From a bacterium BMS3Abin11 (lineage in GTDB: Bacteria > Pseudomonadota > Gammaproteobacteria > BMS3Bbin11), in NCBI GenBank assembly GCA_002897635.1, contig BDTD01000006.1:6152-70151 (forward strand): a stretch of 64,000 nt of DNA. The letters run 5' to 3'. The notes under the pieces were generated by a model that worked only from the letters and a program-made list of their open reading frames with translations, had not been told where the DNA came from and ran no database searches. Position numbers and translations under genes: made by a program. Below, one piece after another: positions 23,953 to 31,743 of the stretch (within the stretch, counting starts at the first letter, position 1; every line of letters starts with the position of its first letter).

Positions 23953-24001
23953 AATTGGTCGGGGTGAGAGGATTCGAACCTCCGACCCCCTACTCCCGAA
24001 G
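23953..24001. repeat. att direct repeat, distal copy (tRNA-Pro 3' fragment)
   Basis: AATTGGTCGGGGTGAGAGGATTCGAACCTCCGACCCCCTACTCCCGAAG is identical to 31695-31743. Confidence 0.9.
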
Positions 24002-24130
24002 GAGTGCCATCACAGCTTCTTCCTACTTCACTCCATATCATAGGGCACACTCAAGTAGTTATATTGTAAGGGGGAAGGATGATTTCCTCCGCTTTGTGCT
24101 ATCATTTCATTTCAGGCAATTTCAAACAAT

Positions 24131-24158
24131 ATTCCACCTATAATTCCACCAGGTGGAA
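24131..24158. promoter_or_regulatory. Candidate integrase arm-type sites (ATTCCACC x2 plus inverted copy)
   Basis: Reads attccacctataattccaccaggtggaa just upstream of the int ATG. The same motif occurs twice at the other island end (31628-31650). Confidence 0.45.
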
Positions 24159-24168
24159 GGGAGCGCCC

Positions 24169-25416
24169 ATGGCAGCACGCACACCTATTAAGACTGAACT
24201 ACAACTATCAAAGCTCAGGGCTGGCAACAAGCCCTATGACGTGCCAGTAAGTATTGCACCCGGCATGGTGGTGCGCGTTTCACCCGCTGGCCGAAAAACC
24301 TACCGCTGGGATCGAGGTTACGGCCACAAGCCTCGTATAGTGGGCTATGGCAATTTTCCAAGTACAAGCCTGAGCGATGCCGCTAAGGAGCATGAAAAGA
24401 CGCGACAGCGGCACACAGATGGGGTAGACCTACACATGGGGCTGGATTCACCTAAGACCGTTAAGGACTTGGCTGAGCTATTTTACCGTGACCGAATAGT
24501 CCCCCATCGCAAAAGACCGGATGATGTACGTGCGACACTGGATAACGACATTCTTCCAGCATTGGGCAGGATGCACCTTCGTTCAGTGACCACACTGGCT
24601 GTGAGAAGTATGGTGCATAAGGTCGTGGCGCGAGGGGCAACAGTACTCGCGGGAAAAGTTTTAGCCCATACCAAGCAGCTGTTCCGCTTCGGCATATCGG
24701 TGGGCGCGATGGACTATAATCCCGCGGAGAGTTTGGAGGCAATAAGCCTTGGCATTGAGGACAATCGTCGCGACCGAGTGCTGAACAGTAAGGAAATACA
24801 GCAATTTATTGTGGCGTTAGATAAGTATAAGCGGTTATCTATCCCTGTTAAAACTGCACTCAAGTTGCTGTTACTTACAGGTTTGAGAAGTGGCGAGTTA
24901 CGTCAAACTAAGTGGAGCGATGTAGATTTGAATAATGGCACTTTGCTAGTGCCTGTAGTTAATCAAAAATTAAGCCCGAGAAGTGCCAAGGCGGCCAAAC
25001 CATTTATTTGCACTCTCTCTGATCAAGCAATTGTTCTCATAAAAGAGCTGGTTCACCTTGATACTGTGTGGGTCTTCCCCGGCAATAATGAGAATGCACC
25101 GCTGACTGATAAAGTATTTGGCCGTGCAGTTAGACGACTCCTAACCTTGCAAGGAGAGGGCGGGGGTAAAGTGCTGCCTGTTGATGCTTTCAGCCCCCAT
25201 GACCTAAGGAGAACAATGCGGTCAGGGCTAAGTAAGCTACGAATACCGCCCCATGTTGCCGAGCGGTGCCTGAATCACAGCTTGGGGCGAATTGTGGAGA
25301 CATATGACCAGCATGATTATTTAGATGAACGGCGAGAGGCTGTACAGAAGTGGGCTGATCGAGTGGACGTGTATCTTTATCAGGGTGAAAAAGTTGCCGT
25401 GCTAAAAACTGCTTAA
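24169..25416 (+). CDS. int: P4-type tyrosine integrase
   Basis: Carries KPYDVPVSIAPGMVVRVSPAGRKTYRWDRGYG (DUF4102-like), GLRSGELRQTKWSDVDL, HDLRRTMRSGL and ETYDQHDY. The start is at MAARTP because the longer ORF would run into the att repeat. Confidence 0.9.
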   Translation: MAARTPIKTELQLSKLRAGNKPYDVPVSIAPGMVVRVSPAGRKTYRWDRGYGHKPRIVGYGNFPSTSLSDAAKEHEKTRQRHTDGVDLHMGLDSPKTVKDLAELFYRDRIVPHRKRPDDVRATLDNDILPALGRMHLRSVTTLAVRSMVHKVVARGATVLAGKVLAHTKQLFRFGISVGAMDYNPAESLEAISLGIEDNRRDRVLNSKEIQQFIVALDKYKRLSIPVKTALKLLLLTGLRSGELRQTKWSDVDLNNGTLLVPVVNQKLSPRSAKAAKPFICTLSDQAIVLIKELVHLDTVWVFPGNNENAPLTDKVFGRAVRRLLTLQGEGGGKVLPVDAFSPHDLRRTMRSGLSKLRIPPHVAERCLNHSLGRIVETYDQHDYLDERREAVQKWADRVDVYLYQGEKVAVLKTA

Positions 25417-25477
25417 ATCTGATAAGTCTTACTATTATGTACGCACAAGTAAGTTCATGATAAATATAATAAAAGTA

Positions 25478-25505
25478 TTGACATTTTGAAGTAATTTGAT
25501 ATGCT
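25478..25505 (+). promoter_or_regulatory. Possible sigma-70 promoter for the alpA-primase module
   Basis: TTGACA, a 16-nt spacer, then TATGCT. Confidence 0.3.
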
Positions 25506-25642
25506 TAGAACCTAGATGAAGTGGTCAACATATAAAGATCATTTCAAGCGGAAATTTATAATATACCCCATTCACTTTTCGGCCTAAACAGCCCAGAAGC
25601 AATTCACACCGCATCCAGTAAATCCAGTTTTGGAGAAATGCT

Positions 25643-25873
25643 ATGTGTATGAAAAGTGAAGCCCCCCATATAGAAGAACGATTCTATACCAAACGAGACA
25701 TGGCCCGTCGTTATGGCGTGTCTCCCCTAACGATTTGGCGCTGGGTGAAAGCGAAGAAGATTCCCCCGGGTGCCTACATCAACCAAAAGAGCGGCCGGGC
25801 ACCAGAGAAGGTACGTCAGGCAGACGAGATGCTGCTCTCAGCTCAGCACGAGACCACCGACGCAACAAAATAA
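25643..25873 (+). CDS. AlpA/excisionase-type helix-turn-helix protein
   Basis: FYTKRDMARRYGVSPLTIWRWVKAKKIPPG is typical of AlpA / HTH_17 regulators that lie next to P4-type integrases. Confidence 0.7.
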   Translation: MCMKSEAPHIEERFYTKRDMARRYGVSPLTIWRWVKAKKIPPGAYINQKSGRAPEKVRQADEMLLSAQHETTDATK

Positions 25874-30091: not shown

Positions 30092-30199
30092 CTTAGTAAT
30101 ACTGCAGGCGAAAAAGAAAAAAGCATATCAAATATTGGAAGCATTAAAAATTAGCCATCACAAATAGTACGCCCTGTACATCAGTGACACGAGCCAATT

Positions 30200-30628
30200 T
30201 TATGGGCACTCCCTCATTGCCCGAGTCTTACCAACATCAGCTGCTGTAGAGCAAGCATTCACACTGAACTTTCTTTCACATTCGGCCCGTTTTCTTTCAT
30301 CGTCTATTTCAAGTTCTCCACAGTATTTAGTTGCAAGTGTATTCCTGTAGAATTGTTGATTTTTACGTGCGGTAAGCAGGCAGTCTAAAAACTTTCTCTT
30401 CTCCTCCTCTGCGCATGCCGAGTAGTTCGTATACTCCGGATATGGACTAGTGTGAAGCGCTTTATTAATACAGCAACTTACTTCAAACCGTGTGTTTTCG
30501 AATTCATCTAGAGAATCATTCCACGGCCACGCCGCCGCCTGTGAGGTGCTGAGTAACAAAGCAACAACTACAAAAAATAATTTTCTCAATGTGAATCTCC
30601 GTAAAGAGAACAAAGACGATTCACACAT
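30200..30628 (-). CDS. Secreted Cys-rich hypothetical protein
   Basis: Signal-like LRKLFFVVVALLLSTSQAAAWPW. The mature part has 8 Cys. Start uncertain. Confidence 0.5.
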   Translation of the reverse strand: MCESSLFSLRRFTLRKLFFVVVALLLSTSQAAAWPWNDSLDEFENTRFEVSCCINKALHTSPYPEYTNYSACAEEEKRKFLDCLLTARKNQQFYRNTLATKYCGELEIDDERKRAECERKFSVNACSTAADVGKTRAMRECP

Positions 30629-30981
30629 GCTACAGGAAACACGATAGTGCTACCAAATTCGGATCCATTAGCAAAATGGGAATTTCTCTACACGGCATAC
30701 GTTACTACTATCACGCATGCATGGCGTTGGTCCCATACCCCCCTGTATTCTTTACCCTAGACAAACACATCAGGCTGACTCATAGAGCTGACTACTATCA
30801 CCGGTAGATGGTGACCAGGTACTCACTGCCCTATGCTCAGCACATGCTCTTTTACAATTCGGATTTTCAAACTCGGCACAGGGACGCGCCGGTTATTTTT
30901 TCTAAGGAGAGAATAGCGCCCTGCAAGATGGCGGTAACCATCAAGCAGGACTTCCACTTACTATCTGAAAGGAGATAGCAA

Positions 30982-31488
30982 ATGACAACTATCACACTAT
31001 ATGAACTCGGCGCGTACAACAACAGCCAGCTGATACCCCAGACCTTTAACCTTGACCTGATCGACAGCCAGCAGGACTGGCTGGAGGCGGTAGGTGAATG
31101 GTTACACGCACTGACCGAACAGACAGGCCAGCTCTGCGAAGAAAGTATTGTCTGTGATTATGATGGCCTCCCGGCAGGGTATGTCGGAGAGTTCGACATT
31201 AATCCTGAGTACTGGGCGTATAAGCAGGCCGTAGAGGCCAGCTATCTTGATGTAGAAGTTTTCGAGGCCGCTGCAGAGCTAGACATTGAACCGGATATGA
31301 CAGAAGAGCTATATCAAGGTGAGCATGGCAGTGACGAAGATTTTGCCTATCAGCTAGCTGACGACTTTGGCCTGGTGCCAATGAATAATGATTGGCCTAG
31401 TAGTTATATTGACTGGAGCGCTGCAGCTCGTGACCTGATGATGGACTATGGCGAAAGCGGCGGGCACTATTTCAGGACAAGTTACTAA
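30982..31488 (+). CDS. ardA: ArdA-type antirestriction protein
   Basis: Acidic 168-aa protein. It begins ITLYELGAYNNSQLIPQTF, has EESIVCDYDGLP in the middle, and ends YIDWSAAARDLMMDY...GHYFR. This parallels the conserved ArdA blocks (as in Tn916 Orf18). GGAG lies 7 nt upstream. Confidence 0.75.
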   Translation: MTTITLYELGAYNNSQLIPQTFNLDLIDSQQDWLEAVGEWLHALTEQTGQLCEESIVCDYDGLPAGYVGEFDINPEYWAYKQAVEASYLDVEVFEAAAELDIEPDMTEELYQGEHGSDEDFAYQLADDFGLVPMNNDWPSSYIDWSAAARDLMMDYGESGGHYFRTSY

Positions 31489-31627
31489 GCGGGGGTATTT
31501 TGCAGAGCGGTACCCCCGGCTTTGTGTCGGGAGGTGTTCGTTCTGGCGTTATGAGGCCCAGATCGTCTGCAGGTAAAAAATATTATGTTGCCTTATCTAA
31601 AGGCTGTGAAATGAAGTTTCTAAACAG

Positions 31628-31650
31628 AATTCCACCTGAAATTCCACCTA
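31628..31650. promoter_or_regulatory. Candidate integrase arm-type sites (AATTCCACC x2)
   Basis: Reads aattccacctgaaattccaccta, about 45 nt inside the tRNA-proximal att repeat. Confidence 0.45.
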
Positions 31651-31694
31651 TAGCGAAATAGTGTATACAGGTTTGGTAGATAACCTGTTGTTAT

Positions 31695-31743
31695 AATTGG
31701 TCGGGGTGAGAGGATTCGAACCTCCGACCCCCTACTCCCGAAG
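31695..31743. repeat. att direct repeat, tRNA-proximal copy
   Basis: Identical to 23953-24001. It covers the 3' 46 nt of tRNA-Pro plus 3 nt. Confidence 0.9.

Follow-up and report, generated by a model that had tools for sequence, protein, structure and literature searches.

A compact integrative element in tRNA-Pro(CGG) of an uncultured marine gammaproteobacterium, with a candidate antisense RNA over its terminal ardA gene

What kind of mobile DNA occupies the tRNA-Pro(CGG) gene of an uncultured gammaproteobacterium of marine and hydrothermal samples, and by what means would it reach new cells? The question is raised by a 7,742-bp insertion within a 64,000-nucleotide stretch of contig BDTD01000006.1 (positions 6,152 to 70,151 of the forward strand; hereafter the window, 64 kb), which carries an integrase gene (int), a gene for an AlpA-like protein (alpA), a primase-helicase gene and the anti-restriction gene ardA. 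Many islands consist of no more than int, alpA and a primase gene, and most of them are labeled "cryptic prophage." The insertion is a discrete integrative element. The explanation that we favor, at an even balance of probability, is an integrative, self-replicating and helper-dependent element unable to transfer itself, closest in layout and logic to phage-inducible chromosomal minimalist islands (PICMI) and virion-encapsidated integrative mobile elements (VEIMEs). As a whole the element resembles these known minimal marine satellites and is not a new kind; its most novel feature is the candidate antisense regulation of ardA.

Boundaries, empty site and host populations

The ends of the element are defined by two copies of an attachment (att) core and by the tRNA gene itself:

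23953-24001, minus strand: displaced att core copy, a tRNA-Pro 3' fragment antisense to int; exact 49-bp repeat of 31695-31743, present as a single copy in empty-site genomes
31695-31743, minus strand: att core copy (49-bp repeat) that completes the functional tRNA-Pro(CGG)
31698-31774, minus strand: tRNA-Pro(CGG), the integration target (ARAGORN; Rfam tRNA, 61.6 bits)

The insertion is bounded by exact 49-bp direct repeats. A repeat finder extended these to 23953-24004 and 31695-31746, identical at 51 of 52 positions with the first 49 bases exact. Each 49-bp copy comprises the final 46 nt of the tRNA, beginning at the anticodon loop's 5' edge and ending with the encoded CCA, and 3 nt past the tRNA; repeat identity thus ends at the anticodon loop. 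An attB of this same type, "anticodon loop to CCA end," has been described for some integrase groups (bioRxiv 10.1101/2020.11.02.365908). All features of an Islander-type tRNA island (PMC4383910) were found, namely an intact tDNA, a co-oriented downstream displaced 3' fragment, an int gene in between and an empty site, the last in one metagenomic contig (run X4) and in two metagenome-assembled genomes (MAGs; L009 and L010). The GC content of the element was unremarkable.

In the X4 contig, which is at least 99% identical to the window, position 23952 is joined directly to 31695, with 7,742 bases skipped and 49 bases compatible with either side. In L009 and L010, MAGs of sister species, the alignment ran without a break from the left flank through the tRNA into ispB, with one core copy. 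Since a near-identical genome and two sister-species MAGs have the empty site, the insertion is real and recent. The first-pass annotation had described a 7.8-kb element in tRNA-Pro(CGG) with exact 49-bp repeats, a description borne out by ARAGORN, the repeat finder and the empty sites. It had also proposed a comparison with genomes lacking the element, and reasoned that both repeats at this tRNA in such genomes would speak against its reading; X4, L009 and L010 each carry a single core, with one core copy in the two MAGs and a direct join in the X4 contig.

The element was not uniformly present in natural populations. Host flank sequence was found in at least 19 metagenome runs and the element interior in only six, and presence or absence varied between populations whose flanks were at least 99% identical. 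Representative depths were as follows:

X1: element depth 84-91, flank depth 190-200 (approximately 45%)
X2: element depth 14-17, flank depth 30-32 (approximately 45%)
X3: element depth at most 4, flank depth 33-34 (under 10%)
X21: element at a few percent of the flank, flank depth 82-98
X8 and X9: backbone depth 0, flank depth approximately 100

In X1, X3 and X6, loose ends at the core showed alternative junction sequences. They matched none of the fetched loci and may represent further islands or additional tRNA-Pro copies. No GTDB genome contained the exact left junction, and none of 50,697 phage records matched the element, queried whole by megablast.

The host ispB shares 94% identity with the ispB of MAG BMS9Abin25 and 86% with that of an Arenicellales MAG. 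Beside the island lies a Gly/Tyr-rich repetitive protein (22237-22872) with a weak match to sulfur-globule proteins, which suggests that the host is a sulfur oxidizer. Relative to the window, this gene carries an 18-bp in-frame insertion (22637/22638) in X1, X2, X3, X8 and X9, with more indels in X8 and X9. Immediately left of the att site, a 30-nt sequence (23844-23873) has a second copy in the window at 39662. Its metagenome depth is 2.5-4x that of its surroundings and many differing flanks branch off from it; it looks like a short dispersed repeat of the repetitive extragenic palindrome (REP) or miniature inverted-repeat transposable element (MITE) type. At approximately 23228 the window lacks about 1 kb held by both sister MAGs (L009 6664-7697; L010 9966-10999), in L009 largely inside a 421-residue open reading frame (ORF; 6805-8070), and thus the window seems, from this alignment, to carry a deletion just left of the island.

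Integrase placement and arm-type sites

The recombination module reads as arm repeats, core, arm repeats and int, with the following features on the int side and at the tRNA side:

24131-24158, plus strand: int-proximal arm-type repeats, ATTCCACC twice with 12-bp spacing, then an inverted AGGTGGAA, ending 11 bp before the int ATG
24169-25416, plus strand: tyrosine integrase int, 415 residues (gene call; Pfam Arm-DNA-bind_3, Phage_int_M and Phage_integrase; PHROG)
31629-31648, plus strand: tRNA-proximal arm-type repeats, ATTCCACC twice with 12-bp spacing (motif scan, comparison)

The int start is most likely 24169, as called in public assemblies, rather than 24079. The catalytic R-K-H-R-H-Y residues are present and invariant in the alignment, and sequence comparison places the integrase in the P4 superfamily, within a separate clade of marine Gammaproteobacteria. 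Identity is 26-29% with integrases from islands whose primases are related, and 27% with the integrase of a second island in the window, which is inserted at the tmRNA gene.

The int gene adjoins the displaced fragment, approximately 7.5 kb from the intact tRNA, and is transcribed towards the tRNA. After integration, all plus-strand genes of the element point to the tRNA, with int left beside the displaced fragment. This arrangement recurred among 80 GTDB loci fetched as integrase relatives, none of which has a co-oriented tRNA just upstream of int. Instead, an antisense tRNA T-arm was found 150-630 bp upstream of int in 15 of 19 loci (at least 34% identity, at least 150 bp of upstream sequence) and in one more locus at 29% identity; L015 is the 16th of the 19, by virtue of a 47-bp repeat, and L016, L017 and L018 (47-56% identity) gave neither a T-arm nor a repeat. 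Where the fetched locus spans the whole island, which is so in four cases, an intact tRNA gene lies at the other end and on the opposite strand: tRNA-Val(CAC) in L015 (47-bp repeat), tRNA-Val(GAC) in L019 (45-bp repeat), tRNA-Pro(CGG) in L026 (46-bp repeat) and tRNA-Pro(GGG) in L033 (52-bp repeat). These comparisons indicate that the core is inverted relative to int across the clade and that a far-end int is a clade rule, not an oddity of this element. The placement had at first been taken as non-canonical. That description holds against the P4/CP4-57 convention, which the tmRNA island in the window follows, whereas the placement is no anomaly within its integrase clade and is also the PICMI layout. 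In a survey of 1,273 tRNA-adjacent integrases, 736 were co-oriented (tRNA then int) and 438 convergent, the other two shapes together making up less than 8% (Panis 2010, PMC2951348).

The tmRNA island (37-7418) has the canonical order, with tmRNA (7061-7418, minus strand) followed on the same strand by a P4-type integrase (5683-6876, minus strand). It further encodes RadC (5129-5614), a defense-like nSTAND3 NTPase with an Mrr_cat nuclease domain (1897-4167) and a protein with a TnsA-like domain (37-1599), and it reaches or passes the left edge of the window.

The motif ATTCCACC occurs seven times in the window as compared to 2.3 expected, and four of these copies form two pairs with identical 12-bp spacing (24131-24150 and 31629-31648), each near a core repeat. 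L015 (integrase 61% identical, tRNA-Val) and an island of Pseudohaliea (59%, tRNA-Pro) carry the same ATTCCACCTGA pair on both arms and in the same places. More distant relatives carry other motifs: GTTAACCCA pairs on the arms of L026 (integrase 41% identical), TTTTTAGCCA in L033 and T(T/C)TCACCT in L019. Across these loci, the ATTCCACC repeats behave like arm-type Int sites that depend on the integrase, since the pairs change with integrase lineage. The initial suggestion of arm-type sites at both ends is consistent with this pattern, in which the same tandem pair accompanies 59-61% identical integrases and other pairs accompany distant ones. Int would bind the ATTCCACC(TGA) pairs via its Arm-DNA-bind_3 domain. 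The int-side repeats probably double as the int operator, and Int would probably repress its own promoter, reminiscent of the autoregulation of int known for KplE1 (PMC2951348).

Replication module, cargo and likeness to minimal satellites

Downstream of int lie a regulatory gene, a replication gene and a candidate origin:

25478-25505, plus strand: promoter-like site TTGACA-16 nt-TG-TATGCT ahead of alpA and the primase gene (consensus scan only)
25643-25873, plus strand: AlpA-like MerR/HTH_17 protein, candidate excisionase/regulator (HTH_17, E 1.4e-5; phrog_66, E 1.4e-6)
25876-25893, plus strand: terminator-like hairpin in the gap between alpA and the primase gene (consensus scan only)
25979-28444, plus strand: replication protein, 821 residues, with AEP PrimPol, PriCT-2, D5_N and P4-family SF3 helicase parts (Pfam, NCBIfam, fold model)
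28460-28568, no strand assigned: candidate origin, TGCGCACTT twice (28463-28482), a spacer of approximately 63 bp, then the inverted pair (28546-28565)

The phrog_66 family is annotated as excisionase/regulator, and the AlpA-like protein shares 37% identity with its AlpA counterpart in the Pseudohaliea island. Within the replication protein, the C-terminal two thirds matched PriCT_2, D5_N and the SF3 helicase of African swine fever virus C962R, and TIGR01613, the P4-family primase C terminus, was matched at 274.8 bits (cut-off 108.7), as expected of a P4-family protein. The N-terminal 240 residues had no Pfam match. Motifs DxD, sGxGxH and RvPGT.N.K in this region are invariant or present in at least 90% of 13 aligned sequences, with D108/D110, S150/G153/H155 and D194 invariant or nearly so. 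An AlphaFold model of the domain built with 12 homologues (pLDDT 85, pTM 0.80) matched the cyanophage S-2L PrimPol (6zp9_A; E 7.6e-9, target-normalized TM 0.75), RSF1010 RepB', CAPP and LigD-Pol. Motifs and predicted fold together assign the domain to the AEP/PrimPol superfamily.

Single-sequence searches with the primase returned nothing in GTDB genomes or IMG/VR. Homologues at up to 53% identity sit in islands of other Proteobacteria with the order int, (AlpA), primase and cargo, and in at least one case (L006) the layout is the canonical tRNA-Ser followed by int. Right after the primase stop codon, the element carries TGCGCACTTTGCGCACTTT, 63 nt and then the inverse of TGCGCACTTTGCGCACTTT. 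An identical 19-nt iteron pair lies directly past the primase stop in L004 and L005, whose primases are 53% identical and whose contigs are unrelated, and one iteron copy each was found in L006 and L007; the iteron 15-mer was in none of 270 other loci. L099, with a DUF3987-type primase, has a different inverted repeat at the same position. There is thus strong comparative evidence that the iterons are the cognate origin of the primase, because they follow primases only 53% identical and occur nowhere else among the fetched loci.

Between the origin and ardA lie four ORFs without assigned family:

28645-28944, plus strand: conserved small post-primase ORF, 99 residues; the ORF occupying this position in L099, where the primase family differs, is 52% identical
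28941-29549, plus strand: HExxH ORF, 202 residues, putative small metallopeptidase, overlapping the stop codon of the preceding 99-residue ORF
29597-30076, minus strand: cargo ORF, 159 residues, signal-peptide-like N terminus (gene call); C-terminal half 81% identical to an ORF of L198
30200-30628, minus strand: cargo ORF, 142 residues, Cys-rich, signal-peptide-like N terminus (gene call)

None of the four had a family match in Pfam, PHROG, NCBIfam or relaxed Pfam, and PADLOC reported no defense family in any element ORF. Only 20 relatives of the HExxH ORF were found among 1.84 billion representative proteins. H40, E41 and H44 are invariant in this family, while the family's conserved C-terminal half is absent here in every frame and the ORF ends in a low-complexity tail. 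A PDB sequence search with the HExxH ORF gave noise only, and a single-sequence AlphaFold model was unusable (pLDDT 45). In the gene list of the first-pass annotation, int, the AlpA-like protein, the AEP-primase/SF3 helicase, the iterons and ardA stand. Its iteron region is corrected in detail to two inverted pairs of TGCGCACTT, and its "five cargo ORFs" are replaced by one post-primase ORF, one HExxH ORF and two secreted minus-strand ORFs. A further small ORF (30808-30978) may not be a gene, since it overlaps the RNA element described below, from which its apparent conservation may stem.

The block from 29594 to 31319, comprising the two secreted ORFs and ardA, was present in X8 and X9 at depth 6-8 and 93-97% identity, while int, alpA and the primase gene were absent there. 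Hence this block also travels on another backbone. An X3 contig diverges left of 29594, and the comparison places at this position a recombination boundary between backbone and cargo.

These data bear on whether the element is still mobile. It could be a recently immobilized remnant of a single integration, now inherited vertically or deleted, with its polymorphism reflecting strain structure. Consistent with this, the circular form was unobserved (k-mer contigs cannot resolve across the 49-bp repeat), the HExxH ORF lacks the C-terminal half of its family, and contigs break in the cargo region because of variants. We regard a remnant as very improbable, given that the 49-bp repeats are perfect, that int, alpA, the primase gene and ardA are intact and that arm sites are conserved on both arms; moreover, presence or absence differs among populations with near-identical flanks, and the occurrence of the block on another backbone implies that modules are still exchanged.

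Profile searches of all element ORFs against Pfam, PHROG and relaxed Pfam gave no match to a capsid, terminase or portal protein, nor to a relaxase, type IV secretion system component or other transfer gene, and no match fell in the PHROG head-and-packaging category. The absence of capsid, terminase and conjugation genes had been noted at the outset. Because packaging and conjugation genes are absent, the element must rely on something else to move, and the satellite lifestyle that we propose is reasoned from this gene content and from likeness to known systems.

The closest such system is PICMI, islands of Vibrionaceae demonstrated by experiment to be satellites of virulent phages, whose only requirements are int, alpA and prim; a direct repeat precedes int, and cargo occupies the stretch from prim to the target gene (Barcia-Cruz et al. 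2024, PMC10803314). The element shares the size (6-8 kb), the marine gammaproteobacterial hosts, the int/alpA/prim core without capsid-remodeling or packaging genes, the direct repeat upstream of int and far from the target gene, and variable cargo, often defense in relatives, between prim and target. Co-localized int, alpA and prim were all found, the AlpA match being below the gathering score. In contrast, PICMI target the fis 3' end, the hallmark named by their authors, rather than tRNA-Pro(CGG). A link to PICMI was sought through fis near related integrases; fis was found in no related locus. PICMI primases are of the DUF3987/DUF5906 type, whereas that of the element is of the AEP/PriCT-2/D5_N/P4 type, with only PriCT_2 and D5_N passing E at most 0.01 and weak PF19263 matches in some homologues. 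The element also lacks the iolg-like gene overlapping int, has a terminal ardA with a candidate antisense RNA, and has no known helper.

VEIMEs are elements of seawater packaged as concatemers (Eppley et al. 2022, PMC9618062). As with these, the element is small and marine, has a tyrosine integrase, AlpA and primase/helicase, has variable host frequency and, as is usual among VEIMEs, lacks capsid-remodeling genes. Unlike VEIMEs, which are defined by concatemers in virus particles, the element is known from sequence alone and has no close IMG/VR match, and its host appears to be a sulfur-oxidizing gammaproteobacterium of vents or sediment rather than of seawater. Likeness to P4 and CP4-57-type elements extends to the Arm-DNA-bind_3 integrase, AlpA-type regulator, TIGR01613 helicase with D5_N, iterons as predicted binding sites of the replication protein, and tRNA/tmRNA target. 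However, psu, delta, sid, epsilon and cos are lacking, the primase domain has an AEP fold, the integrase shares only 26-29% identity with typical P4-type integrases, and inversion of the core relative to int leaves int at the far end. Of the SatelliteFinder P4-like core set, only int, the AlpA-like protein and the alpha-like helicase were recovered, with psu, delta, sid and epsilon unmatched in Pfam, PHROG and NCBIfam. The terS, ppi/rpp, capsid, portal and head-tail genes that define phage-inducible chromosomal islands (PICI) and their capsid-forming class (cf-PICI) were likewise not found, as no PHROG head-and-packaging match was obtained.

Module composition varies among relatives. L099 has the full order of int, AlpA, PrimPol/DUF3987, a homologue of the 99-residue ORF (52% identical), cargo and ardA, and the Pseudohaliea island beside tRNA-Pro(CGG) carries int (59% identical), AlpA, DUF3987, a type I restriction-modification (R-M) system with two HsdM genes, and ardA. 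Among loci with a related integrase, the replication module is an AAA_25 primase/helicase in L015 and Toprim plus DUF927 in L026. Cargo of relatives is often defense, with type I R-M in L101, L102 and Pseudohaliea; L103 carries a large helicase and a PLD nuclease. In L005 (primase 53% identical, same iterons), positions 7728-12490 hold type IV CRISPR-Cas-like genes, namely Csf3, a RAMP protein, a CRISPR_assoc protein and a DEAD/DinG-type helicase. The L101 island, which ends with ardA and also holds a Terminase_6N fragment and type I R-M genes, has sub-threshold Rfam matches (6804-6902, minus strand) to isrK and to a1/b1, the targets of C4 antisense RNA, all immunity elements of the P1/P4 type. 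The 10.6-kb L026 island (tRNA-Pro(CGG), integrase 41% identical, same inverted geometry) encodes a fusion of prohead (ClpP-type) protease and major capsid protein (7754-9598) and could be a capsid-forming satellite or a phage remnant.

Three points favor a phage as the helper: the element shares its three-gene core and layout with PICMI, shown by experiment to be satellites of virulent phages (PMC10803314), and with VEIMEs (PMC9618062); an island at the same tRNA with a related integrase (L026) has a capsid-protease gene; and conjugation functions are absent. It is also conceivable that the element is an integrated plasmid-like replicon with no dedicated helper, spread by natural transformation, membrane vesicles or generalized transduction. 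The complete replication module with origin, the complete integration module and the lack of anything resembling helper interference are consistent with such a replicon, as is the finding of VEIME-like concatemers in the vesicle fraction too (Eppley et al., PMC9618062). We consider it improbable, as no partition or copy-control genes were found in the element, its tightly controlled anti-restriction gene suggests regular entry into new hosts, and its architecture is common to experimentally proven satellites (PMC10803314).

The ardA end, its candidate antisense RNA and the mode of transfer

The tRNA-proximal end of the element consists of two overlapping features:

30906-30992, minus strand: candidate cis-antisense RNA with two hairpins, over the ardA Shine-Dalgarno sequence and start codon (sub-threshold Rfam match; covariance model)
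30982-31488, plus strand: ArdA anti-restriction protein, 168 residues, last gene of the element, convergent with the tRNA (PF07275, phrog_2059)

The protein was matched by PF07275 at 54.3 bits (cut-off 27) over residues 9-157, covering positions 6-146 of the 155-position model, as for a member of the ArdA family. In every locus reaching far enough, no gene separates that of the ArdA relative (52-90% identity) from a convergent tRNA, 120-210 bp away. This terminal ardA is seen in ten loci, one of them the window, at tRNA-Pro(CGG) (the window, L103, L104, L105 and L111), tRNA-Phe(GAA) (L098 and L106), tRNA-Ser(GGA) (L102) and tRNA-Ser(TGA) (L198 and L210). Because of this conserved, tRNA-facing terminal position and the full gene order of L099, comparison identifies ardA as part of the backbone, at a conserved tRNA-proximal end, and not as cargo.

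A full-length match to Rfam PtaRNA1 (RF01811) was found at 30914-30988 on the minus strand, at 32 bits as compared to a gathering score of 47 (E 1.8e-4 in 601 nt). As in PtaRNA1, the predicted RNA is approximately 75 nt long with two hairpins and lies in horizontally transferred DNA; its 5' UUGUCAU (UUGnCAU in the family) is complementary to the ardA ATG, and its first hairpin loop is complementary to the GGAG Shine-Dalgarno sequence. In contrast to PtaRNA1, the gene overlapped is ardA (168 residues), not a small toxin gene, and with a score below threshold the RNA is not assigned to the family. The same match was obtained in the same register at the ardA start of L099 (25.7 bits) and of L100.

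A covariance model trained on five loci found the element in L198, which was not among them, at 92.6 bits. With six loci, the antisense strand scored 82-98 bits and the sense strand at most 24. The copies identified by covariance model beyond that of the window were:

L099: 8734-8822
L098: 342-429
L103: 9925-10011
L104: 9924-10011
L198: 6096-6185

In the alignment, which comprises six sequences only, two of them close, and was fitted to the model, 94.6% of cells were paired and six pairs had changes on both sides (compensatory). None of 500 shuffles reached any of five measures, and slid controls paired 31-58% of cells. Several invariant U.G pairs in the antisense RNA would be A.C on the mRNA strand. 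No RNA-seq runs with the element were found. From covariation and register, the two-hairpin element may be an antisense switch for the anti-restriction gene.

The ardA end also supplies the evidence for a serious rival, namely an integrative mobilizable element that would use an unrecognized origin of transfer (oriT) and the relaxase of a helper, with ArdA as a leading-region establishment gene. ArdA (PF07275) is a typical leading-region protein of conjugative plasmids and transposons. A gene of this type is present, and it stands at the extreme end beside att in all ten loci noted above; the antisense RNA resembles the Rfam "plasmid transferred anti-sense RNA," and the canonical ptaRNA1 toxin adjoins trbL in an integrative and conjugative element (ICE) of Proteus (PMC11278526). 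The minus strand upstream of ardA also folds well as single-stranded DNA (z = -3.4). A Frpo-like single-strand promoter was considered for this fold and dropped, as the signal is accounted for by the two antisense-RNA hairpins. No relaxase, coupling protein or recognizable oriT was found in the element (Pfam, PHROG, relaxed Pfam), although an oriT mimic could escape detection by sequence; ArdA homologues are common in viral contigs too (129 IMG/VR matches), and relatives by integrase or architecture have capsid or terminase fragments rather than conjugation genes. On this evidence we consider mobilization unlikely.

Several observations weigh against the helper-dependent satellite that we favor. 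ArdA and PtaRNA1-like RNA are both features classically associated with conjugative plasmids and ICEs. The element has no recognizable TerS-like gene, cos site or pac site, no helper prophage was found within the 64-kb window, and no close relative of the primase or ArdA was found in IMG/VR viral contigs. The AlpA assignment is below the Pfam gathering score (HTH_17, 25.6 as compared to 27 bits). Element depth is below host depth, and active replication was not evident in the sampled communities. No direct sign of excision, circles, concatemers or packaging was found; Logan contigs overlap by approximately 30 bases, and because the 49-bp core is longer, attP and attB are inseparable in them from attL and attR.

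For a helper-dependent satellite of this composition, the following cycle is envisaged. AlpA would act as excisionase and activator, directing excision, and the excised circle would multiply as the primase-helicase fires the iteron origin. A helper would carry copies to new cells, most likely a phage packaging concatemers, as in PICMI and VEIMEs. In the new cell, ArdA would block type I restriction, the antisense RNA would then silence ardA translation, and Int would then re-integrate the element and repress itself. A more specific proposal, which we offer tentatively and consider doubtful as it stands, is that the element belongs to a family, not yet described, of minimal elements that depend on a helper and live in Gammaproteobacteria of marine and vent settings. 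Such a family would be characterized by an inverted tRNA-integration module (antisense tRNA fragment, arm repeats and int) at one end and, at the tRNA end, by a conserved establishment module in which a PtaRNA1-like cis-antisense RNA gates the translation of ardA. If true, an anti-restriction gene would be under an antisense switch whose fold has hitherto been known only from type I antitoxins.

The island is unusually clean, with exact ends, a documented empty site and a frequency in natural populations from 0 to approximately 45% of host depth. Comparison alone assigns three kinds of candidate sites in it: arm sites varying together with the integrase, iterons that accompany the primase and, across the start of ardA, an antisense RNA. 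Surveys seeking an integrase beside an intact tRNA would miss the whole clade of far-end integrases. If the antisense RNA of ardA is real, it would represent a new way to time anti-restriction after DNA entry, and if a helper is found, the range of minimal satellites, now Vibrionaceae and plankton of the open ocean, would widen to include uncultured Gammaproteobacteria of marine and vent settings.

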